From Escherichia phage Minorna, in sequence record NC_048172.1: 43,264 nucleotides of DNA. One strand, given 5' to 3'. The first letter of the stretch is position 1, and every line of letters begins with the position of its first letter. Positions 25,942 to 43,211 of this stretch are shown here, in pieces. The notes beneath the pieces were generated by a model. The model was not told the origin of the DNA, made no database searches, and saw only the letters and a program-made list of their open reading frames with translations. Made by a program: the position numbers and the translations under genes.

Positions 25942-26135
25942 ACTTCAATCTCCCCCACTACATCCAGCATAGCATTGTCGTGAATGAGAGAATCCAAATG
26001 CTCAACTGTTCTTCGATGTGTTTTGGGTGCTCGTTCACGCAACGCGTCCAGAATAGTTTCCAGTTCATCATGTTTCCCCTCATAGTATAACTCAATCGCC
26101 CGCAGGCTCATTTCCTTCGCAGACATCTTCGCCAT
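25932..26135 (-). CDS. hypothetical protein (about 67 aa)
   Basis: Start set to ATG 26135 (AGGAG about 10 nt upstream); the track ORF to 26204 overlaps the exonuclease gene extensively. Confidence 0.4.
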   Translation of the reverse strand: MAKMSAKEMSLRAIELYYEGKHDELETILDALRERAPKTHRRTVEHLDSLIHDNAMLDVVGEIEVWP

Positions 26136-27060
26136 TGTCTGGGTGCTCCTGTATCCACTGTATGTGCTGTTTATGGTACTCGTGCAGCGACTGCACCCAG
26201 TCACGTAGACTGGGAGTAGTCAACAGTGACATCAGATACTGATAGGCAGAATCTGATTGGGAGCGTCGCAGGAACAGGCATTCAGCCTCTGCGAGTACAT
26301 CTTGGTTGTTTCTAGCATAAGCCGCTACAACGAACTCTGCGGCGTCTTGCTCTGAGGTAATAGGGTAGATAGCATCAAAGGCCGTTCGCTTGCCACAGGG
26401 CTTCCCATCAAGCAACGTGATGCCTTTGACGTTATCTGCGTCGTCTCCTGCTAGCATCTGCCACCAGAAGAACTTCAAGCCGTGTGCTCGTACAGGCATA
26501 GCCTGGGTGTCATCCCACTTAATCCATCCGAAGGGATCCTCCAGTGCAGGCCACACTGTACCGGTTGGGATATCAAACCGGGCCATAGGACTGAGCCAGG
26601 AATCTTTATCCTGTGACATCAGGATACCGCGCTCACCGAAGGCGTATGAATCCATTACGAACAGGTCATCCGCCTCGAAGAAGTCACTGCTAACCACCTG
26701 GATACCTTGCTCAGAATACTGGTCCGGGTTATCAATCAGGTGCCGCTTCAAAGGGGCCTTCAGTGGTAGCTCCTGCCGGTTAGCTCGCTGCCCCTGGTAG
26801 GGCTTAGCCGTAGGCAGGTGCCAGCGCAAGCACTTAGCACAGCCCGTAGGCGTTAGATACGCCACTGCTTCTGAGCAACCGACCAGGAACATATCCTCAA
26901 GCAGCAGCTGATAGAAGCGGCGTATCGCGGTATCTAGCCGTTTCACTGTAGCAGCGGCTTTGTACACGCAAAAGTCCGCATCATACAGCAGAATCTTCCC
27001 AGAGTTCTGCGGAGCTAACTGCTCTGGGAGCTGGGATAAGTCAACCCCGTTGATAATCAT
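26092..27060 (-). CDS. 5'-3' exonuclease (FEN/T7 gp6-like)
   Basis: 322 aa with ILLYDADF near the N-terminus, FEADDL, and a GDDADNVKGI helix-hairpin-helix-like motif, as in flap endonuclease/5'-3' exonuclease proteins. Confidence 0.75.
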   Translation of the reverse strand: MIINGVDLSQLPEQLAPQNSGKILLYDADFCVYKAAATVKRLDTAIRRFYQLLLEDMFLVGCSEAVAYLTPTGCAKCLRWHLPTAKPYQGQRANRQELPLKAPLKRHLIDNPDQYSEQGIQVVSSDFFEADDLFVMDSYAFGERGILMSQDKDSWLSPMARFDIPTGTVWPALEDPFGWIKWDDTQAMPVRAHGLKFFWWQMLAGDDADNVKGITLLDGKPCGKRTAFDAIYPITSEQDAAEFVVAAYARNNQDVLAEAECLFLRRSQSDSAYQYLMSLLTTPSLRDWVQSLHEYHKQHIQWIQEHPDNGEDVCEGNEPAGD

Positions 27061-27218
27061 TAGCGCCCCGTAATATCGCGGGCCTTCTTATCGGCCCAGT
27101 TAACCCAACGTTCAGCCCACTTCGCCTTTGTGAGTTTATCACACAGATAGCAGAGCCCCGCCAAGGGGATTAGTGGGAGAATCAAAACTACGTAAATCGC
27201 ACGCTGTAAGTATAGCAT
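27060..27218 (-). CDS. small membrane protein (52 aa), absent from the ORF track (below 60 aa)
   Basis: ATG at 27218-27216 shares its A with the upstream TGA stop; its TAA stop overlaps the exonuclease ATG (TAATG); translation MLYLQRAIYVVLILPLIPLAGLCYLCDKLTKAKWAERWVNWADKKARDITGR has one hydrophobic helix. Confidence 0.35.
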   Translation of the reverse strand: MLYLQRAIYVVLILPLIPLAGLCYLCDKLTKAKWAERWVNWADKKARDITGR

Positions 27219-27598
27219 CAGCACGACTCCAACTCAGACAGCACCAGCACGGTACCAAGCATGTCCCCGATTACTTCCGGCGTACGCAGGCTCTGGTCTA
27301 CATCGTAGATACAGGAACCAATCTCCGCCAACCCGATACTGAGAGTACCTACGATGCGGATAACTGCCAGATCGTCCCCCTTCAACTTATCGGCATGTGC
27401 CGCCAGGTCGTTGTGTTCCTTGAAGGCGGTAGCGGCCAGCTCCAGATCCATACCGTATAGGGCAGCCAGTTTATCCAGCGCATCATAGAGTGTGCCCAAC
27501 TCATCACCATCTACAACATAATCATGCGCCGAGTCGTATACCACTGAAGCTACAGCTTTAGCCAGATTCTTGTATGCATCTAATACTTTATCCATCAA
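27218..27598 (-). CDS. hypothetical protein (126 aa, acidic)
   Basis: ORF in the coupled gene array; no recognisable motif. Confidence 0.5.
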   Translation of the reverse strand: MMDKVLDAYKNLAKAVASVVYDSAHDYVVDGDELGTLYDALDKLAALYGMDLELAATAFKEHNDLAAHADKLKGDDLAVIRIVGTLSIGLAEIGSCIYDVDQSLRTPEVIGDMLGTVLVLSELESC

Positions 27599-27853
27599 TC
27601 ATACCCCCAGAAAGTTTACTACTTCATCACGCTTAGCGCGCAGTTTATCAGCCTGTTCAGCGCACTTAGCCGCTTCAGCTTTGCTGCGTTTGGAGTCTTC
27701 TACTCGTGCCTCGGATTGTGCCGCCAGGCGCACCGCATCATCTGCAAACTTAATCGACAACTGCTCATTCAGTTGTGCCTTAGCGTCAGCACGTTTAGCT
27801 TCTGCTGTATAAGCTACACTTAGGAGTTTGGTGAGAATCTTGATGATATTCAT
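27599..27853 (-). CDS. hypothetical coiled-coil protein (84 aa)
   Basis: Lys/Ala/Glu-rich helical ORF. Confidence 0.45.
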   Translation of the reverse strand: MNIIKILTKLLSVAYTAEAKRADAKAQLNEQLSIKFADDAVRLAAQSEARVEDSKRSKAEAAKCAEQADKLRAKRDEVVNFLGV

Positions 27854-27866
27854 AGGCTTCCTCTAA

Positions 27867-27882
27867 GGCCCCAGGCGGGGCC
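27867..27882 (-). promoter_or_regulatory. intergenic GC hairpin (6-bp stem, 4-nt loop) just upstream of an RBS
   Basis: Plus strand ggcccc-aggc-ggggcc at 27867-27882, between the stop of the 280-aa gene and the SD of the next gene; no U-tract. Confidence 0.3.
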
Positions 27883-27905
27883 GTATTAGTTAGTAATAGG
27901 GTTGC

Positions 27906-28748
27906 TTAGGCTTGCGGTGCAGCAGGCGCTACAGGAGCCGCTGGAGCCACTGGCGCTGCCGGTGCTACAGGGGCGCTTGGTGCTGTTGGTGCTACTGGAG
28001 CACTCGGTGCCGCTGGCGCAGTGGGCGCAGCCGGGGCCTGCATAGACTGAGGGCTCGGAACCGAACCAGCGTTCAGCATAATATCCAGGGCACTGCCCGG
28101 GAAGTCTACAGCCTTGTACATATCCTCCTGAATCCAGTTCTTGCTCTTACCGTCGTCCTTGGTCCCCTCAATATATAAGCTATCCCAGGTTTCCTTGGTC
28201 GGGTTGTTCCACAAGAACAGCTTAATCTCGGAAGCATCCAGCTCAGGCATTTTAATCGGCTCACCGGTATTCGGGTCGAACTTCGGAATCGGACGGATTG
28301 CCGCGAGGTCTACAATGTTAGACTTCTTACCTGCTGCGCTGGTGTGCTCATCCAGCGGGAACACAAACGCCTGTCCCAGTCGCTGCGCAGCGTGCTTAAT
28401 GCTGCCATCGTAGTTGAGCTTGTCGAAGAACTTCTTGAAGCCCGCGCGCTCAAAGTTGCTGATGGTCATCGGATATGGACGAATACGCTTAACCTCACCG
28501 TTCGGGCCGTACACCACAATCCCGATGCGAACGTTCGGCGCGGCAGGCTTACCGGTAGGCTTACCACCTTTAGTCGGCAGGCGCTTACCAATTTCCACGT
28601 ACTCAGTAAAGTAACCGTAGTACTCACCCTTCGGCAGAAGCACATCCTCATACGCACCACCCTGGGCGGTCTCAGTCATATCAACTTCTTGAGTTTCAAT
28701 CGCAGCAGCAACCAGGGAGTTCAGAGTGTCCAGTGCATTCATAGTCAT
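27906..28748 (-). CDS. hypothetical protein with C-terminal Pro/Ala-rich repeat tail (possible DNA-binding protein)
   Basis: 280 aa; globular N-terminal part followed by about 43 aa of (A/V/T/S)PAAP-type repeats. Confidence 0.55.
   Translation of the reverse strand: MTMNALDTLNSLVAAAIETQEVDMTETAQGGAYEDVLLPKGEYYGYFTEYVEIGKRLPTKGGKPTGKPAAPNVRIGIVVYGPNGEVKRIRPYPMTISNFERAGFKKFFDKLNYDGSIKHAAQRLGQAFVFPLDEHTSAAGKKSNIVDLAAIRPIPKFDPNTGEPIKMPELDASEIKLFLWNNPTKETWDSLYIEGTKDDGKSKNWIQEDMYKAVDFPGSALDIMLNAGSVPSPQSMQAPAAPTAPAAPSAPVAPTAPSAPVAPAAPVAPAAPVAPAAPQA
27909..28037 (-). repeat. imperfect in-frame tandem DNA repeat encoding the Pro/Ala-rich tail
   Basis: Plus-strand series of gcNggNgc(c/t)ac(t/a)gg-like units (gctacaggagccgctggagccactggcgctgccggtgctacagg...). 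Confidence 0.7.
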
Positions 28749-28799: not shown

Positions 28800-28964
28800 T
28801 TAGAGTTTTGAAGCGACGGCGGCGGCAACGAACACCAGGATTATAGCCAGCGCAGCAGGGCCCCAGAACGGGAGCAGCACCCACAGCCAAGACCAGGTGA
28901 TAACTCCGGTCAGTTTCAAGGTTACAAAGATAAGGCCCAGTACAGAACAGATTCCCATTTTCAT
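28800..28964 (-). CDS. small hydrophobic membrane protein (2 predicted TM helices)
   Basis: Translation MKMGICSVLGLIFVTLKLTGVITWSWLWVLLPFWGPAALAIILVFVAAAVASKL; start set to ATG 28964 (GAGGTG upstream; alternative ATG 28958); track ORF extends to 29006. Confidence 0.45.
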   Translation of the reverse strand: MKMGICSVLGLIFVTLKLTGVITWSWLWVLLPFWGPAALAIILVFVAAAVASKL

Positions 28965-28977
28965 AATCACCTCTACG

Positions 28978-29958
28978 TTATTTAGAACGGCCAACCCAAC
29001 GACCATCGTCGTCGAGCAGCATCGGAATTAGCTGCGGACAACCCTCTGTGATTACCAGTACGCCTAGGATTGGTTTCTTACGGGCTAACCTACCGTATGC
29101 AAAGGCCAGACTCTTACGGTCAATCAAGCAGCCTGCATACGCGCCAAAATATAGTGCCGTCGAAGACGCTGCATACTGAACTTCGAACCGCCCATGCTCG
29201 TGACCGAGAACCAGTGAAGTGCGCTCATGGGACGCATTAAGCATGAAGTCACCTGATACTTGATGCTGGAAGCGGACAGGTCCCAGCGGTGTATTAAGTA
29301 CCCAAGCATCGGCCCACGACCATGCCGGAGCACCGTGCTCAGGGAACAAGATATCGCGGTACTTCTTAATAAATTGCACCGGCAAACCGTGAGCCTTGGC
29401 GCGACGATACACCAGACTCCCGTGATTGGAATCGCATACGAGAAGATTCGGGAAGAGTTCATGCAGCTGCTCCAGTACTAACTTAGCCTTCTCCAGTTCC
29501 ACCCCGGCGCTATCCAGGTTCGGGTTGCTTTCGTGGAATGAAATAGCGTGGCCGTCAGTCTCATCCCCAACTTGTACAACCATATCCGGGCAGTAAGTGT
29601 CTCGGACAGACTCTAAGAAGTCCATAGCGTCTACGTGGGTGTAAGGGGCATGCAGATCCCCTACCACTAAGATGCGGTGACACACCTCCGGGACGAAGGT
29701 TTTACCTAGGTCATCAGTCGGACTTGGCTGTATAAGCTTTAATGCCTCCTTCATATGTGACACAGCCTTGCCCTTGCTACCACCGTGATCTAGGAATATG
29801 CTGCGCCAATACTTAACCATCTGACGATATACTACTGGCTCACTTAACCCAGCCAGCTTATTATAGGCAGCTGCAGCATCCACGTTAGAGCTATACTTGC
29901 TCAGGATGTCTACATGTTGTTCTTTGGTGAACAGCTTTATTGTGTTTAACTTAGGCAT
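28978..29958 (-). CDS. calcineurin-like metallophosphoesterase
   Basis: 326 aa with ordered metallophosphatase motifs: VVGDLHAP (GDxH), VQVGDETDGH (GDxxD), DSNHG (GNH), GHEHG. Confidence 0.7.
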   Translation of the reverse strand: MPKLNTIKLFTKEQHVDILSKYSSNVDAAAAYNKLAGLSEPVVYRQMVKYWRSIFLDHGGSKGKAVSHMKEALKLIQPSPTDDLGKTFVPEVCHRILVVGDLHAPYTHVDAMDFLESVRDTYCPDMVVQVGDETDGHAISFHESNPNLDSAGVELEKAKLVLEQLHELFPNLLVCDSNHGSLVYRRAKAHGLPVQFIKKYRDILFPEHGAPAWSWADAWVLNTPLGPVRFQHQVSGDFMLNASHERTSLVLGHEHGRFEVQYAASSTALYFGAYAGCLIDRKSLAFAYGRLARKKPILGVLVITEGCPQLIPMLLDDDGRWVGRSK

Positions 29959-30385
29959 TCCAGCTCCTGTTACTTATTACGTCACTGATTACGTGTACAC
30001 CTACACCATACTTATTGGCGAAGTATTGTCGCACACCTTTCTTGTAAGGGATATAGTTATTTCTAATATCCTGCACAGCATCCCAAGATAGCTTCGCTTT
30101 TGGGTTTCTCTCTCCACGCACATCCGGGTTCCTTCCACGTTCCGCACGGTCTCTCATATTATCTAAATGTGTCCCCAGCACGAGGTGTTCTGGATTAATA
30201 CATCTAGGATTATCACAGGTATGCCTAACAGATAAGCCAGCTATAACATCTAAGCTTAGCCCGTTATGTTCTGCATACACCACCCTGTGTAGCAGTTCTA
30301 AGCGCTTGGTTGGTTTGTACCAAGCCCTACGATAGCCATTCTTATTAAGGCATTTAGTATACCCGTGGTCAATACACATCGACAT
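29951..30385 (-). CDS. HNH homing endonuclease
   Basis: 144 aa with HRVVYAEHNG..VRHTCDNPRCINPEHLVLGTHLDNM, a typical phage HNH nuclease motif; preceded by a 160-nt AT-rich non-coding segment. Confidence 0.8.
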   Translation of the reverse strand: MSMCIDHGYTKCLNKNGYRRAWYKPTKRLELLHRVVYAEHNGLSLDVIAGLSVRHTCDNPRCINPEHLVLGTHLDNMRDRAERGRNPDVRGERNPKAKLSWDAVQDIRNNYIPYKKGVRQYFANKYGVGVHVISDVISNRSWNA

Positions 30386-30546: not shown

Positions 30547-30768
30547 TCACTCCGCGATGAGCTTGTACTCTCCAGCGAAGAAGGTGATGCCGTCCCCAGG
30601 CTTCTCTGAATTATTGTCTGGATTCATTAACTCCACCTCCCAGAATTCGGGGTCATAAGATATCACACGATGCTGAGTGCCTGGTGCAAAGTAATCACGA
30701 TGTCTAGGTTCTAAGGGTTCCGGCCCAAGTCCCAGTATCTCCACAATACTACCCGGTTTAATAGTCAT
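30547..30768 (-). CDS. hypothetical protein (73 aa)
   Basis: Small ORF directly after the DNA polymerase gene; start overlaps the polymerase stop. Confidence 0.45.
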   Translation of the reverse strand: MTIKPGSIVEILGLGPEPLEPRHRDYFAPGTQHRVISYDPEFWEVELMNPDNNSEKPGDGITFFAGEYKLIAE

Positions 30769-33131
30769 TCTACTTTCTCCTTACTGTACATGCTTGTACC
30801 CATTTCAGCTTCCGCTGGGAACGGGACTTCGCCAATGATGCCGTAGTTAGGCCAGAGCTGGTGAATACGCTTAGGTGCATCCTCCATACACTGCTTAACT
30901 AACAGGCTCGCTTCTCTGCCTACTTCCGGATTAGCACTATCCAGATACAATGCATCGTGCACGTTCGTAATCAAGCACACCTGATTATTGAACCAATCCC
31001 GTGCCAGCATTGCACGCAGAACCATACCAGCTGCTACCGCCATCAGGAAGAATGCCTCACCCTGACACCAGTAGTTAGCCATCTCAGTTTCTTTGTAGTC
31101 CATCACCTTTTGTTTGCGCTGGCCAGGGACTACTTCCTTCCACTGCTCCTTCTGGCGGAAACTGTACCGTGCACCAGCTGGGCTGGTCCAGGTGCCAATG
31201 CGGTAGATGCGGTAGCTGCCATCATCCGCTTGCTCCCGGTAAATGCGCCCAGCCGCCCCGGTGCGCTCTACCTCCTCCTTTACTACCGCCCGGAATCCGA
31301 TGGTGTCTGGGAACAGCTTCGCCTCGTTATCCAGGAACGACTGCGCATACTCCACTGTACAGCCTGTAGCAAACGCAATCCCTTTAGCCGTAGCCCCGTA
31401 CTGTGCAGCAAAGCTCGGAGGCTTAATGTCCGTACGCTGCTGCTTCCAGTATTTGTAGTCCGGCCCATCTGCGTTGTGGCAGAGGTCGTACATCTCTTCG
31501 TAGGTTTTGCCCTCCTTGAACGCTAGGCGGTAGCAGTGCATATCCGTGCCGTTCTGCAGCAAACCCAACAGCTTCCTGTCTCCGGTGTGAACACAAGACA
31601 TAACCACTTCCAGGGCAGAGTAGTCAACCTCAGTGATACGACCGGATTCACCGAAACGGGAAGTGAACATCTGTTTTACTTTACTAGTTCCATCTCGCGG
31701 GAGATTCTGGAGGTTTGGGTTAGAGCCAGATAGTCTCCCGGTAACAGTAGCACAGGTGTTGAGGCGGTGGTGGATAACACCCGAACCATCAAGGTTCTGA
31801 GGTATAACATATTGGAGCATGCCTGAGGTCTTTTTAATTGACCCATCTTCGTTATACTCCGTTCGTAGATAGTAAGTTCCTGTATCCTTTTCCAGAGCGC
31901 CGAGTTCGTTCACCAATCGACAGAACTCAAATCCATGACGTGCTAGGGCTTCCATTGCATCTGTGCTGGTGCTGTAGATTGGTGTCCCATCCTGCAAGCA
32001 CCGAGCTTGCCTGAACTCCCCACGCTCAGCGTATTTCTCTCGGAGCACCTCTGGGAGTTCTTGGATGTTAACTAGGCCTGGACAGAAGTAGAGGTCGTCC
32101 TCCCACTTGAGTTTCTCCTCTTCAGTGTCCACTCGGAACACTTTTGGTAGGCCCTTGTTCTTCCCTGCTTTGTAGGTTACATAATTGTGTGGTCCAGATA
32201 CGTCGGTGCTATCACAAGGTACGAATGTTCCGTCAGTGCCCTGCACCAGGTACGCATCACACTTAACGTACTGTGGAGGGTCGTATGGTACTTTCTTGCG
32301 ATACTTGATAGGGCCACCGTATACCAGTGCAGACATATGGAAGTCCGAGCCGAAGTTGAAATCCAGTGTCTCCGGCAAGTCCTTCGGGATGTATTGTTGC
32401 AGCTCCTTCTTAATCTCCAGGATACGCTGCTCCTGCTCCTCTTGGTTCTTGCGAGCAATGGGCATATTCACGAACAGACCGAACCATTCGCAGTAGGCCC
32501 AGGCCAGTAAGGCATCCATGCGCTCCCACACATACTGCATCTGATTACGCTGGGCGAACGTAGCGCACTGGCCGTAGAAGCACAGGGCCGTGTTCGGTAT
32601 ATCCCCATTCACTAGGTAGTCATGCAATAGCATAGGATCAATCTGGGAGGTTAATACACCTTGATCCCAGAGAATCTTAACCCCATCTACTTTGTGCGTA
32701 CCGCCGTACTTAGGAGCCGTCTCGTCCAGTGACGGATACATGCTCTGAAAGTCCGAGGCGATGTATTCTCCGTGCATCGTGCAGAACACCCTGCCGCCGC
32801 GCTTGAGGAAGGCCTCAAACTGCTGCCGCTGGTACGTGAGAAACCAAGAAATCTCATAGGCTGCGTTGTGCGCAACAATAAGCCAGCAATCTTCTGGGAT
32901 ATGAAACCACCGGCAGCCTTCTGCTGCACTGTTTCCCGCCAAGAAATCAGCTCTTGAATTGAAGCGCACCGATTGAGTCGCACCAACAGTGGTAGTACCG
33001 TCAGCCTGTGTCGTGTCGATACGCCATGCTGACTCAACAACATAGTTGTCAGGGCAGTATGGGCTTGCTTTAGAGCCATAATATTCATGGTTCTCTGTCT
33101 CCAAGTCGATGTGCATTATGCTGGTTGTCAT
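30765..33131 (-). CDS. DNA polymerase (family A, with 3'-5' exonuclease domain)
   Basis: 788 aa; N-terminal Exo I-like HIDLETE; Pol A fingers motif VTGRLSGSNPNLQNLP; position after the helicase gene. Confidence 0.85.
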   Translation of the reverse strand: MTTSIMHIDLETENHEYYGSKASPYCPDNYVVESAWRIDTTQADGTTTVGATQSVRFNSRADFLAGNSAAEGCRWFHIPEDCWLIVAHNAAYEISWFLTYQRQQFEAFLKRGGRVFCTMHGEYIASDFQSMYPSLDETAPKYGGTHKVDGVKILWDQGVLTSQIDPMLLHDYLVNGDIPNTALCFYGQCATFAQRNQMQYVWERMDALLAWAYCEWFGLFVNMPIARKNQEEQEQRILEIKKELQQYIPKDLPETLDFNFGSDFHMSALVYGGPIKYRKKVPYDPPQYVKCDAYLVQGTDGTFVPCDSTDVSGPHNYVTYKAGKNKGLPKVFRVDTEEEKLKWEDDLYFCPGLVNIQELPEVLREKYAERGEFRQARCLQDGTPIYSTSTDAMEALARHGFEFCRLVNELGALEKDTGTYYLRTEYNEDGSIKKTSGMLQYVIPQNLDGSGVIHHRLNTCATVTGRLSGSNPNLQNLPRDGTSKVKQMFTSRFGESGRITEVDYSALEVVMSCVHTGDRKLLGLLQNGTDMHCYRLAFKEGKTYEEMYDLCHNADGPDYKYWKQQRTDIKPPSFAAQYGATAKGIAFATGCTVEYAQSFLDNEAKLFPDTIGFRAVVKEEVERTGAAGRIYREQADDGSYRIYRIGTWTSPAGARYSFRQKEQWKEVVPGQRKQKVMDYKETEMANYWCQGEAFFLMAVAAGMVLRAMLARDWFNNQVCLITNVHDALYLDSANPEVGREASLLVKQCMEDAPKRIHQLWPNYGIIGEVPFPAEAEMGTSMYSKEKVE

Positions 33132-33513: not shown

Positions 33514-34794
33514 TCACCTGTTAATCTGCCCTTCGTTAAAGCGGCACCTACCTGGGTCGAATGCCACCTCGAATTGCAGGAGCGATTCTTTACCAGATAG
33601 TGCCATCTTATTCTTCGGCGTACTGATACCACGAATGTTTTGCATATGCGGCTGCTCATTCCTGTCCAAGCACCCCATCATAATCGCCAAATCCAAAGCA
33701 CCTTGTACACCAATCTTACTCTGTTTCATTGCCGTGAGCGGAGGGAACAGTAGGTTGTAACCTTCGAGTGAAAGCTGCATAGTACCGATAACGGCACAGT
33801 CATTCTCACACCCCAAGATACGCAGCTCCTGCCACTTCGCTTCTAGATTCTGGTGCTCACTCTCCATAGTACCACCACGGATGTTCGCCACCATATCAAT
33901 GATGATTACCGCTGGGCGCATCTCCTCCATGAGCGTAGAGATTTGAGCCATCGTAAGGGAGTGCGCTGCCTTGATACGGATGCGGTCTGCCCTACCTACT
34001 TTCTCCAGATAGGCTGGCACAAACTCTTGCTTACTGTGCCTGTCCTTAATCTCAGCCAGAGTCCAATGCAGCGCCGCTTGGTATACCCTCGGCACAGTAC
34101 GCGTCGCCGGGCCTTCATTAACCAGCCATAGAATCGGACGATCCCCGTACACTTCCGGTTGCTGCTGCATCTGCTTAGCGAAGTCCACAGCAATAGCAGC
34201 GAGTAGGCTAGTTTTACCAGAATCAACAGGGGCAGCCACAGCAATACAATCACCACCACGAAGCCCACGGATGCTATTAGAGAGTTGCTCAAACACACCC
34301 AGCTTAAGACCGCCACTTTCATCAGTCGCGGCAAGTATCTCATCAACACTTCCGCTCTCCCATTCCAGTAGCGAATCATGAACAGCAGCACCATCACCGT
34401 ACTTGCGCTGGAGGTGCTTCATCTCCAGCAGGTAATCAACTTCCTCCCCGTCTTGGTAGCGCTGCGTGAGCGCTGCGACCTCTCCACTGTACGCCAGCTC
34501 GTTCAGGGTCTGGACAATCCCCACCACAGAATCCTGCGGCACGGCTTGTACTCCCCGCATAAGCTCGTCCATGATTACCCTCTCTTCCCGGGATAAGTGT
34601 CCGGCCCGGAGATTGAGCATGCTCTGCATTGCATCCCACTGCACCTCCTGGTGCTCTGGGTACGTGTTCCAGTACAGCCCTACCCAGTCAAGTAGGTTCG
34701 AGGTATCAGGGGCGAGCATGCTCTTGGGTATCTGCTCTCGCAGTCGGTTCCAGACCTTCTGCGTGCACATTGCCTTGACTACTATTAGGTCCAA
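33514..34794 (-). CDS. replicative DNA helicase (DnaB-like)
   Basis: 426 aa with Walker A-like AAPVDSGKTSLLAAIAV and DnaB-like C-terminal architecture; adjacent to the primase region. Confidence 0.8.
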   Translation of the reverse strand: MDLIVVKAMCTQKVWNRLREQIPKSMLAPDTSNLLDWVGLYWNTYPEHQEVQWDAMQSMLNLRAGHLSREERVIMDELMRGVQAVPQDSVVGIVQTLNELAYSGEVAALTQRYQDGEEVDYLLEMKHLQRKYGDGAAVHDSLLEWESGSVDEILAATDESGGLKLGVFEQLSNSIRGLRGGDCIAVAAPVDSGKTSLLAAIAVDFAKQMQQQPEVYGDRPILWLVNEGPATRTVPRVYQAALHWTLAEIKDRHSKQEFVPAYLEKVGRADRIRIKAAHSLTMAQISTLMEEMRPAVIIIDMVANIRGGTMESEHQNLEAKWQELRILGCENDCAVIGTMQLSLEGYNLLFPPLTAMKQSKIGVQGALDLAIMMGCLDRNEQPHMQNIRGISTPKNKMALSGKESLLQFEVAFDPGRCRFNEGQINR

Positions 34795-35019: not shown

Positions 35020-35225
35020 TAAACCTCCACTTTGTAGATGGCACTCTTTCTAGCATGCGCTCGACACAGGCTCTCTGCCTCATGAAGGTTGGGGTACGTG
35101 TTAATACCTACCCCACGCCCGGATCTGCACAGTTGCCACCAGCGCACCGGAAACCACCAGAACTTAACCTGCGCCTCAAATCCTGCGTAGTTGTCCTGCA
35201 CTACTCTGTACTTATTCTTAAACAT
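35019..35225 (-). CDS. hypothetical protein (68 aa)
   Basis: Small basic ORF coupled to neighbours. Confidence 0.4.
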   Translation of the reverse strand: MFKNKYRVVQDNYAGFEAQVKFWWFPVRWWQLCRSGRGVGINTYPNLHEAESLCRAHARKSAIYKVEV

Positions 35226-36006
35226 TCAAAGCCTCTAGTATCTCTTTGATTTCTGCGTCCTTCGGGTCCGCAGCGAAGTAGTGTTCTCGGCATTGCATGA
35301 ACGGGCGCAGCGCTTTGCGTGCCGCTGCTACCCCAGCATGCCCTGCCAGGTCATTGTCCAGCATTAGAATCACTTCCGGGCGATTCTGAATCAGCCAGGC
35401 CCTTAGCTGCGTGGGCAAGCGTGTACCCAGCATAGCTATAGCCTGCACGTTCAACGCACTGTAGCTCGTAACTGCGTGCTGTATCTTCCGGGCTGAGAGT
35501 AAGTCCTCGGTGAGCACGACCTTTAGAGGTGCGGCCGCAGCTACAGCCGGTGCTACGGCAGGTGCCGCGACAGCGAAAGCTATTGGCTGGCCGTACATTA
35601 CCCACTTCGGTTGCTGCCGGGCATGAACAGCACGGCCCAGTACAGCACCCCCGACACAGAATAGTATCCGCTGTTTCTCGTTGCTCCACTCTGCATCCTC
35701 CACCATTTCAGGCATGATTCCTTTTGAAGCAAGGAATCCGTAAATAAAACTCTGCGTTTCCGCAGGCGCTTGGCTAATGCAAATTGCATCTGCAGGTGCA
35801 GAGGGCTGCACCCTCGGCTCTTCCTGTAACTGTATGCGCTGGTACTGCTTGCGCTCCTTGCCTACCTGTTTGCAGCGGTGGCAATAGTATTCCCAGGCAT
35901 CCGGGTTATTGTAGAGCACCCCGGCGGCGTCCCTGCCGCAGCACCGAAAGCGTGCCCTCTGCCCCACGGCCAGGCGCTTGCACGCTCTAAGCCAGGGTTG
36001 GTCCAT
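35218..36006 (-). CDS. DNA primase (zinc-binding N-terminus plus TOPRIM domain)
   Basis: 262 aa; N-terminal Cys pairs (RCCGRD..CHRCKQ) and TOPRIM-like acidic motifs (VVLTEDLLSARK..ILMLDNDLAGHAG). Confidence 0.75.
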   Translation of the reverse strand: MDQPWLRACKRLAVGQRARFRCCGRDAAGVLYNNPDAWEYYCHRCKQVGKERKQYQRIQLQEEPRVQPSAPADAICISQAPAETQSFIYGFLASKGIMPEMVEDAEWSNEKQRILFCVGGAVLGRAVHARQQPKWVMYGQPIAFAVAAPAVAPAVAAAAPLKVVLTEDLLSARKIQHAVTSYSALNVQAIAMLGTRLPTQLRAWLIQNRPEVILMLDNDLAGHAGVAAARKALRPFMQCREHYFAADPKDAEIKEILEALNV

Positions 36007-42295: not shown

Positions 42296-42499
42296 CCCTT
42301 TTTGTTGAGTATATAACCCTTCACACTATCTAGCCTTAATCCGGCGGAGTCTCCCGACTCTGCCCCGTTCAGCGCCTCAGCGCCTCCCGGTGATTGAACT
42401 ATAGCGCCAATAAACCAAAGGAAGCAAGCACTTTTTTAAACTTTTTATCACTAGGAGCAAAAAGGGTAAGCAGGGCAATGATTTAGCCAATGCCTCCAT

Positions 42500-42549
42500 T
42501 CTAGGGATAGCTCTAGGGATAGCCCAATACTAGCCAATACTAACTAATA
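42500..42549. repeat. tandem 12-mer tctagggatagc x2 followed by ccaatacta(g/a)-type tandem units
   Basis: Plus strand tctagggatagctctagggatagc then ccaatactagccaatactaactaatac. Confidence 0.85.
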
Positions 42550-42771
42550 CCATTTAACGCTACACAAAGCAGAGCGCAGTGACGTAACGGGAGTGGAGTC
42601 ACGGAGCGATGCGGTGACTGTGTAGGTAATGCTTACTCCCTACGGTCGTAATATAGGGCATTACTAGGGGATACTAGTGAATAGTAGTAAGTAGTATGTA
42701 TCTAGTGCCCTAAAACCCTCCTACTCGTGTAACATCATTTCTAAATAGCTTTCGAATGAAAGTAAGGGGAA

Positions 42772-42792
42772 AGGGATAGCTCTAGGGATAGC
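42772..42792. repeat. second copy of the gggatagc-tctagggatagc repeat
   Basis: Plus strand agggatagctctagggatagc, about 270 nt from the first copy. Confidence 0.85.
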
Positions 42793-42879
42793 AAAGGATA
42801 ACGCTAGGTGGCGGATAGTGGAAGTGCGCCCTAGTGGGGAGCGCGCAGCGTAGCATATAATCGGCACAATGTAAAGCAC

Positions 42880-42913
42880 TAGAGATAACCCTAGAGATAG
42901 CTCTAGAGATAGC
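42880..42913. repeat. variant repeat ctagagataaccctagagatagctctagagatagc
   Basis: Same CTAG-(G/A)GATA(G/A)C unit family with G to A variants; agagataaccctag recurs at 43051-43064. Confidence 0.85.
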
Positions 42914-43050
42914 ATATAGACGCACTAGCAGCGCACTGGGCGGCCCACTCGGCACATACTATGGCCCACTACTGGCCCACTGGGCGGCCCGCTAGAGGTC
43001 CGCAAAATAAGCAAGGCAGAGCGCACCTCTACGCCCCACAGAGAGCACGC

Positions 43051-43091
43051 AGAGATAACCCTAGTGCCCCTCAGTGCCTCCCTAGTGCCTC
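43051..43091. repeat. tandem ccctagtgcc-like units
   Basis: Plus strand agagataaccctagtgcccctcagtgcctccctagtgcctc. Confidence 0.8.
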
Positions 43092-43187
43092 TACGAGAGG
43101 CGCATAGTGATAGGCATAGGGTTACCCTAGTGATAGCCATTAAGGCGCGCAGGGAGCTTCTGCGGCCCTCCTAGAGCGCCCTCAGCT

Positions 43188-43211
43188 GGCCATCTAGACG
43201 TCTAGACGGCC
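43188..43211. repeat. 24-bp near-perfect palindrome (ggccatctagacgtctagacggcc) at the extreme end
   Basis: Perfect 12-bp core ctagacgtctag at 43194-43205; one mismatch in the outer arms; immediately followed by a C13 homopolymer (43210-43222) and a ccccc-tat-gggggg inverted repeat (43241-43254). Confidence 0.85.

Follow-up and report, generated by a model that had tools for sequence, protein, structure and literature searches.

An uncharged Ala-Pro-X repeat of variable length as the tail of a probable single-stranded-DNA-binding protein in KP34-like phages

[quoted passage not shown] In that protein an OB-like core is followed by a low-complexity C-terminal tail, irregular in sequence and rich in Gly, Gln and Pro. 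Its linker also carries PxxP motifs, for which partner binding is disputed (PMC7145534, PMC10164576). Phage T7 gp2.5 has a strongly acidic tail that ends in Phe and is described as essential for partner contacts (PMC10359462). Diverged, virus-specific OB-like SSBs are represented by N4 gp45 and HK620 HkaK (DUF669, PHROG 743). The HK620 DUF669 protein is an SSB in vitro (PMC5928155), and DUF669 was linked to N4 SSB by indirect evidence similar to that used here (PMC4889955). N4 SSB has a non-acidic C-terminus, and residues there are essential for activating host RNA polymerase, a protein-protein function (PMC4496689). Outside the SSBs, linkers composed of Ala and Pro with few charges are found in E. 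coli pyruvate dehydrogenase E2 (E2p). These are irregular, 20–30 residues long and placed between domains, and NMR points to trans geometry at all Pro and to an extended, partly rigid chain separating the domains (PMC6270654).

The window, by which we mean the whole stretch of 43,264 nucleotides analyzed here (Escherichia phage Minorna, NC_048172.1), is a complete genome (~43 kb) of the KP34-like type (Drulisvirus, Autographiviridae), and its genes lie on the - strand. A megablast search with the region returned 247 phage records, mostly Klebsiella phages, at 83–93% identity. The gene of interest is placed between DNA polymerase A and a 5'-3' exonuclease and corresponds to gp26 in the KP34 annotation. 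The exonuclease occupies 26092–27060, the helicase 33514–34794 and the primase 35218–36006. Its features, and one in the adjacent spacer, are the following.

27906..28748, - strand: whole coding sequence, 280 aa plus stop (ORF list; orthologue of KP34 gp26 and fHe-Kpn01 g26; PHROG 862)
28311..28628, - strand: predicted OB-like beta core, residues 41–146
28071..28223, - strand: C-terminal subdomain, the most conserved part, residues 176–226, with LFLWNNPTKETWDSL ... SKNWIQE ... GSxLxxML (alignment, translation)
28038..28070, - strand: non-repetitive junction AGSVPSPQSMQ, residues 227–237 (codon listing; pLDDT below 50 at residues 236–244)
27912..28037, - strand: uncharged (Ala-Pro-X)x14 repeat, residues 238–279 (translation, codon table, autocorrelation)
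27909..27923, - strand: AAPQA-COOH tip, residues 276–280, overlapping the last repeat unit (conserved in Drulisvirus loci)
27867..27882, no strand assigned: GC-rich hairpin GGCCCC-nnnn-GGGGCC in the 52-nt intergenic spacer (terminator-like scan)

The first-pass annotation had placed a Pro/Ala-rich C-terminal tail of ~43 residues at 27906–28037, and these coordinates proved exact: the stop codon occupies 27906–27908 and, by translation, residues 238–280 are encoded by 27909–28037 on the - strand. The repeat unit had to be redrawn. It had been given as (A/V/T/S)PAAP-like, and the true unit is not a pentapeptide but the tripeptide Ala-Pro-X, encoded by 9 nt. The tail peptide reads APA APT APA APS APV APT APS APV APA APV APA APV APA APQ + A, that is, 14 consecutive units with no break in register. 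Residues 238–279 split equally into Pro, Ala and X, 14 of each, and the X positions hold Ala, Thr, Ser, Val or Gln. With a Pro frequency of roughly 5%, such a run would lie far beyond chance. Asp and Glu are absent from the tail, which has AAPQA at its C-terminus. A collagen-like triple helix was considered and rejected, given that the 42-residue repeat contains no Gly.

The protein matches PHROG 862 ("unknown function") over its full length (E 2.3e-83, residues 3–272), and distant members of the family do so at E ~1e-68 to 1e-77. Homologues are present in 883 phage records, all from phiKMV-supergroup podoviruses of ~40–46 kb, and the family forms 574 clusters at 50% identity. Our literature search found no paper characterizing the PHROG 862 protein or its tail. 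The fHe-Kpn01 orthologue g26 (277 aa) gave no HHpred matches at the time of its description (PMC7291057). It is a real, abundant protein, and LC-MS/MS of particle preparations picked it up (PMC7291057 supplement).

To place the protein among known folds, we relied on an AlphaFold2 model run on a 62-sequence alignment (mean pLDDT 83). The model has an N-terminal helix, a beta core (41–146), a C-terminal subdomain (176–226) and then a tail to which no structure is assigned; residues 227–280 have no DSSP structure at pLDDT 49–70, values that say little on tail conformation. Invariant alignment columns are F178, P183, W188, L191, N204, Q207, S219 and L221. The best Foldseek matches were PriB, SsbB, bacterial SSBs and a mitochondrial SSB, all weak (E 5e-3 to 3e-2). 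Against viral models (BFVD), outside its own family, the protein matched Xp10 37L and a DUF669 protein (E 1.4e-5). A study of Aeromonas Autographiviridae termed the gene in the syntenic position "DUF669-containing" (PMC9145550). At the level of sequence, the window protein has no Pfam match, and neither it nor 149 further family members match DUF669 or any SSB family in Pfam; PDB sequences searched with the family profile returned noise only. The hhalign probability was below 1% against T7 gp2.5 (0.06%), N4 SSB (0.3%) and HK620 SSB (0.3%), and profile-sequence comparison was negative too. T7 gp2.5 matches PF21265 at 1e-89, a family to which the window protein has no match. Neither the replication genes of the window nor a fully annotated relative yielded another recognisable SSB family; in that relative the orthologous gene is labelled "single strand DNA binding protein". 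With its predicted fold, the gene most likely encodes a replication-module OB-fold protein that would bind single-stranded DNA and serve as the SSB of the phage.

In sequence comparison, the tails of relatives are the most telling pointer to this identity. Some distant family members end in acidic tails with DDDIPF, DDDIPY, DDDIPW or DEVPF. A DDDIPF-like tip is found in at least 8 of them, and two DDDIPF members directly follow DNA polymerase A in phiKMV-type modules. Other members end in DFGLPSL or LAALGL (endings in DDDIPF/Y/W, DFGLPSL or LAALGL were noted in P0153, P0170, P0194, P0206, P0148 and P0186 and in loci L074 and L075, with DDDIPF in P0194). At least five Pro in period-3 register occur in 93/220 family tails, across divergent clades. 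One conserved core therefore bears at least four classes of tail or tip: (Ala-Pro-X)n, DDDIPF-type, DFGLPSL and LAALGL. Some P/V/A-rich tails contain an internal D-x-P-P-F motif, for example that of Aeromonas phage Lolek (L078:3995-5089).

Comparison with the described systems shows partial likeness in each case. The window protein resembles E. coli SSB in that a predicted OB-like core precedes a C-terminal tail of ~40–60 residues, Pro-rich and of low complexity, and its distant homologues end in DDDIPF/Y/W, but sequence homology is undetectable, and the window tail is neutral, strictly of period 3 and devoid of an acidic tip. The analogy to the well-studied SSB tail mechanism is therefore indirect. 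As the SSB of T7, the type member of this virus family, gp2.5 has the same expected role in an Autographiviridae replisome, whereas its tail is acidic and ends in Phe and the window tail is neutral and ends in AAPQA. The N4 and HK620 proteins are similarly recognised by fold, tail and the absence of another SSB, and the C-terminus of N4 SSB is likewise not acidic; on the other hand, they belong to PHROG 743 and not 862, and the Ala-Pro-X repeat is absent from both. Finally, the E2p linkers resemble the window tail in their Ala and Pro composition and paucity of charge, but the latter stands at the C-terminus, keeps a strict tripeptide period, varies in copy number and is closed by a conserved tip.

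What might such a tail do? From its regular Pro spacing (one in three residues) and its lack of Gly and of charge, we expect an extended, polyproline-II-like, semi-rigid chain. By analogy with the E2p linkers, the tail is probably a polyproline-II-like rod, and "flexible", the word chosen in the first-pass annotation, is probably wrong for an Ala-Pro-X tail of this kind. Its length would be ~13 nm at 14 units and ~6 to 28 nm over the observed range of units. As polyproline II has three residues per turn, all Pro would lie on one edge. Since the tail occupies the position of the acidic partner-binding tails of other SSBs and of distant family members, we read it as the equivalent module. A neutral tail cannot mimic DNA as acidic SSB tails do. 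N4 SSB offers a precedent for protein binding through a non-acidic C-terminus. On the best reading, the usual acidic SSB tail has probably been replaced by an uncharged spacer or interaction module. The tail would bind a partner, spacing and presenting the conserved AAPQA terminus to a component of the phage replisome or to neighbouring SSB molecules, and/or would offer them repeated PxxP contacts. Its unit number drifts from 6 to 30 through gain and loss of whole 9-nt units. The linker or interaction-motif role suggested earlier is plausible, and can be sharpened here to that of the tail, unusual and uncharged, of a probable phage SSB. To the full reading, in which the protein is the phage SSB and (APX)n its tail module, we give an even chance. 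A bolder version is decidedly improbable. In it, Drulisvirus would have exchanged the DNA-mimicking acidic tail for a length-tunable polyproline-II rod that acts as a multivalent PxxP ligand for an OB- or SH3-like surface on the phage polymerase, the helicase or neighbouring SSBs and organises the replisome or a replication condensate; turnover of units would be selected, for example for escape from SSB-sensing host defences, and would not be neutral drift.

The first-pass annotation had also anticipated that copy number may vary between isolates, and this was borne out. A scan of IMG/VR returned 68 loci, of which the 60 of Drulisvirus type were used for tail counts; one of them, L005 (IMGVR_UViG_2974544971_000001), is the window itself. 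Unit numbers of 6, 8–16 and 30 were seen, with a mode of 13–14. The tail after "MQ" has a length of 3n+1 in 60/60 loci, all in frame, and the rule is kept in 30/34 further proteins from two 90%-identity clusters, where P0005 and P0273 are the only genuine register breaks. Inside such clusters protein lengths range from 259 to 289 aa. AAPQA is terminal in 56/60 Drulisvirus loci, the remainder ending in AAPKA, AAHQA or ATPQA. The pooled X residues of the 60 loci are A (487), V (177), Q (74), T (30) and S (20); charged residues hardly ever occur there. Of the pairs whose globular parts are at least 97% identical, ~60% have different unit numbers, and in no pair are the two tails identical. The 30 units belong to L039 (IMGVR_UViG_3300045988_002328; 328-aa protein, gene start at locus position 1201), in which a stretch of at least 120 nt repeats exactly at an offset of 45 nt, indicating recent tandem expansion of a five-unit block. 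Two frameshifts were observed among database relatives, one within the repeat of P0091 (Klebsiella virus 2019KP1 KP1_19), giving an Arg/Leu/His-rich end, and one in the globular part of P0014; either sequencing error or genuine slippage could account for them. The fivefold range in repeat number within Drulisvirus, together with the alternative tails, constitutes a natural series for what an SSB tail must do, and the same series could address the importance of PxxP motifs in linkers. As Drulisvirus phages find wide use as candidates for Klebsiella therapy, both the SSB identity and a hypervariable marker locus are useful.

Variation of this kind might also be expected if the tail were a tolerated, low-complexity bristle with no specific partner, required only to be soluble, uncharged and unstructured, and with a length that drifts neutrally. 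Nearly identical phages do differ in length, no optimum is obvious beyond the mode, the X positions vary freely among small residues, and the AlphaFold2 model gives the tail no secondary structure. Against neutral drift alone stand the strict period-3 register and the conserved AAPQA terminus, the absence of charged residues, and the recurrence of period-3 Pro tails in divergent clades. Moreover, no relative has lost the tail, the smallest having 6 units. In equal-length pairs the NG86 omega is ~0.13 in the tail vs 0.05 in the globular part, which indicates purifying selection, the tail value being biased low because misaligned units inflate dS and Ala/Pro codons always match. We consider a bristle without partners somewhat unlikely.

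A second alternative concerns the protein as a whole, which may not be an SSB but another replisome or particle factor, such as a replication initiator, an organiser or a genome-packaged DNA-bound protein, with the tail as its tether. The sole NCBIfam match, NF046043 ("phage replication initiation protein, NGO0469 family"), comes from distant family members, with E ~1e-10 and below cut-off. That name was not adopted, however, as it traces to 26–32% BLAST matches over ~100 residues (PMC1931599). Similarly, the presence of g26 in purified fHe-Kpn01 particle preparations and the "structural protein" label of an Acinetobacter phage homologue would suit a particle component, but the exonuclease and RNA polymerase were found in the same preparations, so detection of g26 there shows no structural role. 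The lack of any sequence similarity to proven SSBs also speaks for this alternative; the DDDIPF tips, the OB-like fold and the absence of another SSB point back to an SSB, and we regard a different function as unlikely.

The assignment as a probable SSB bears on existing annotation. Orthologues are labelled in GenBank as "large tegument protein", "Fe-S oxidoreductase", "oxidoreductase", "DNA polymerase", "structural protein" or "single strand DNA binding protein". The tegument, Fe-S oxidoreductase, oxidoreductase and DNA polymerase labels are unsupported by any Pfam, PHROG or NCBIfam match and are corrected here; "large tegument protein" plausibly came from low-complexity matches of the Pro/Ala tail. 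SSB is possibly the sole label with support from family searches.

We then considered the repeat at the level of DNA, which the first-pass annotation had described as an imperfect tandem repeat prone to slippage. The 9-nt periodicity is present, with peaks of ~0.6 in the autocorrelation of the coding DNA at lags 9, 18, 27 and further multiples. It arises because GCN-CCN-NNN codons force it, and the wobble positions are scrambled. DNA identity beyond this codon constraint was not found in the window allele: lag-9 identity was 0.607, vs 0.605 +/- 0.024 for a null in which the same peptide was re-encoded with codons drawn from the window's own usage, and identity from unit to unit is no higher than the encoded peptide requires. 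No exact direct repeat is longer than 8 nt, a value towards the bottom of the null distribution, and TRF reported only 2.2 copies of a 9-nt unit (27934–27953, score 33). In the window allele, the repeat exists mainly as peptide and is weak as a DNA repeat. Some relatives (L039, L027 and L036) do exceed the unit-to-unit identity that their peptides require. Selection against DNA repetition was also tried as an explanation and rejected; the longest exact repeats of relatives have a median of 11 nt and reach at least 120 nt, so no systematic avoidance was found. The proposal of slippage-prone DNA is therefore only partly borne out: units of the window allele are no more alike than codons force, but indels among relatives are nearly all of whole 9-nt units, which fits misalignment between units, and the idea therefore works at the population level.

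Could the repeat matter as DNA, for instance as a slippage-prone on/off contingency locus or another cis-acting element? Its GC content (72% vs 51.5% for the window), its hypervariable unit number and the frameshifted tail of 2019KP1 KP1_19 would be in keeping with such a role. On the other hand, every Drulisvirus locus is in frame with indels in 9-nt steps, identity between units in the window allele is only that required by codons, and no sigma-70-like promoter site was found in the repeat region. Variation also falls mostly on the third codon positions when read in the - strand frame: in the Ala and Pro codons positions 1–2 hardly change, against differences at position 3 in ~52% of comparisons. 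The repeat is upheld by selection on the amino-acid pattern, not on DNA identity, and we find a role as DNA very improbable. The same codon-position pattern fits only the - strand frame and rules out as real genes the two + strand ORFs that traverse the repeat (27902–28045 and 27912–28178), which exist because GC-rich periodic sequence lacks stop codons; with the same architecture in 60 independently assembled relatives, the tail in many GenBank isolates and the orthologous protein detected by mass spectrometry, the suggestion that the repeat is an assembly artefact or non-coding, with the real gene on the other strand, is effectively refuted.

Several further observations were made around the gene. 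The hairpin at 27867–27882 has a perfect stem and lies between the stop codon of the repeat gene and the ATG of the next gene at 27853. Lacking a U-run on the coding (-) strand, it does not qualify as a classical intrinsic terminator; RNA processing or pausing of the phage RNA polymerase could take place there, and the hairpin may not be part of the repeat-tail feature. Small conserved ORFs flank the gene, all on the - strand (28800–29006, 27599–27853 and 27218–27598), from families PHROG 1374, PHROG 5965 and PHROG 6607. PHROG 1374 is a predicted membrane protein, called "small Trp-rich" in some records, and the fHe-Kpn01 orthologues g27 and g28 of the flanking small ORFs were detected by mass spectrometry in particle preparations. 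An ORF for an HNH-type endonuclease (144 aa, 29951–30385, - strand) is found between a metallophosphoesterase (28978–29958) and the DNA polymerase (30765–33131). KP34 and AttikonH2 do not have the same HNH/endonuclease genes at this place, which hints at mobile homing endonucleases. Finally, dense short tandem repeats with periods of 8–12 nt occupy 42369–43208 (TCTAGGGATAGC x2, AGCACTAGAGAT x3.3 and CCCTAGTGC(CT) x3), at the end of the window that matches the early (left) end of the phage, and may be tied to the terminal repeat or to the early promoter region.
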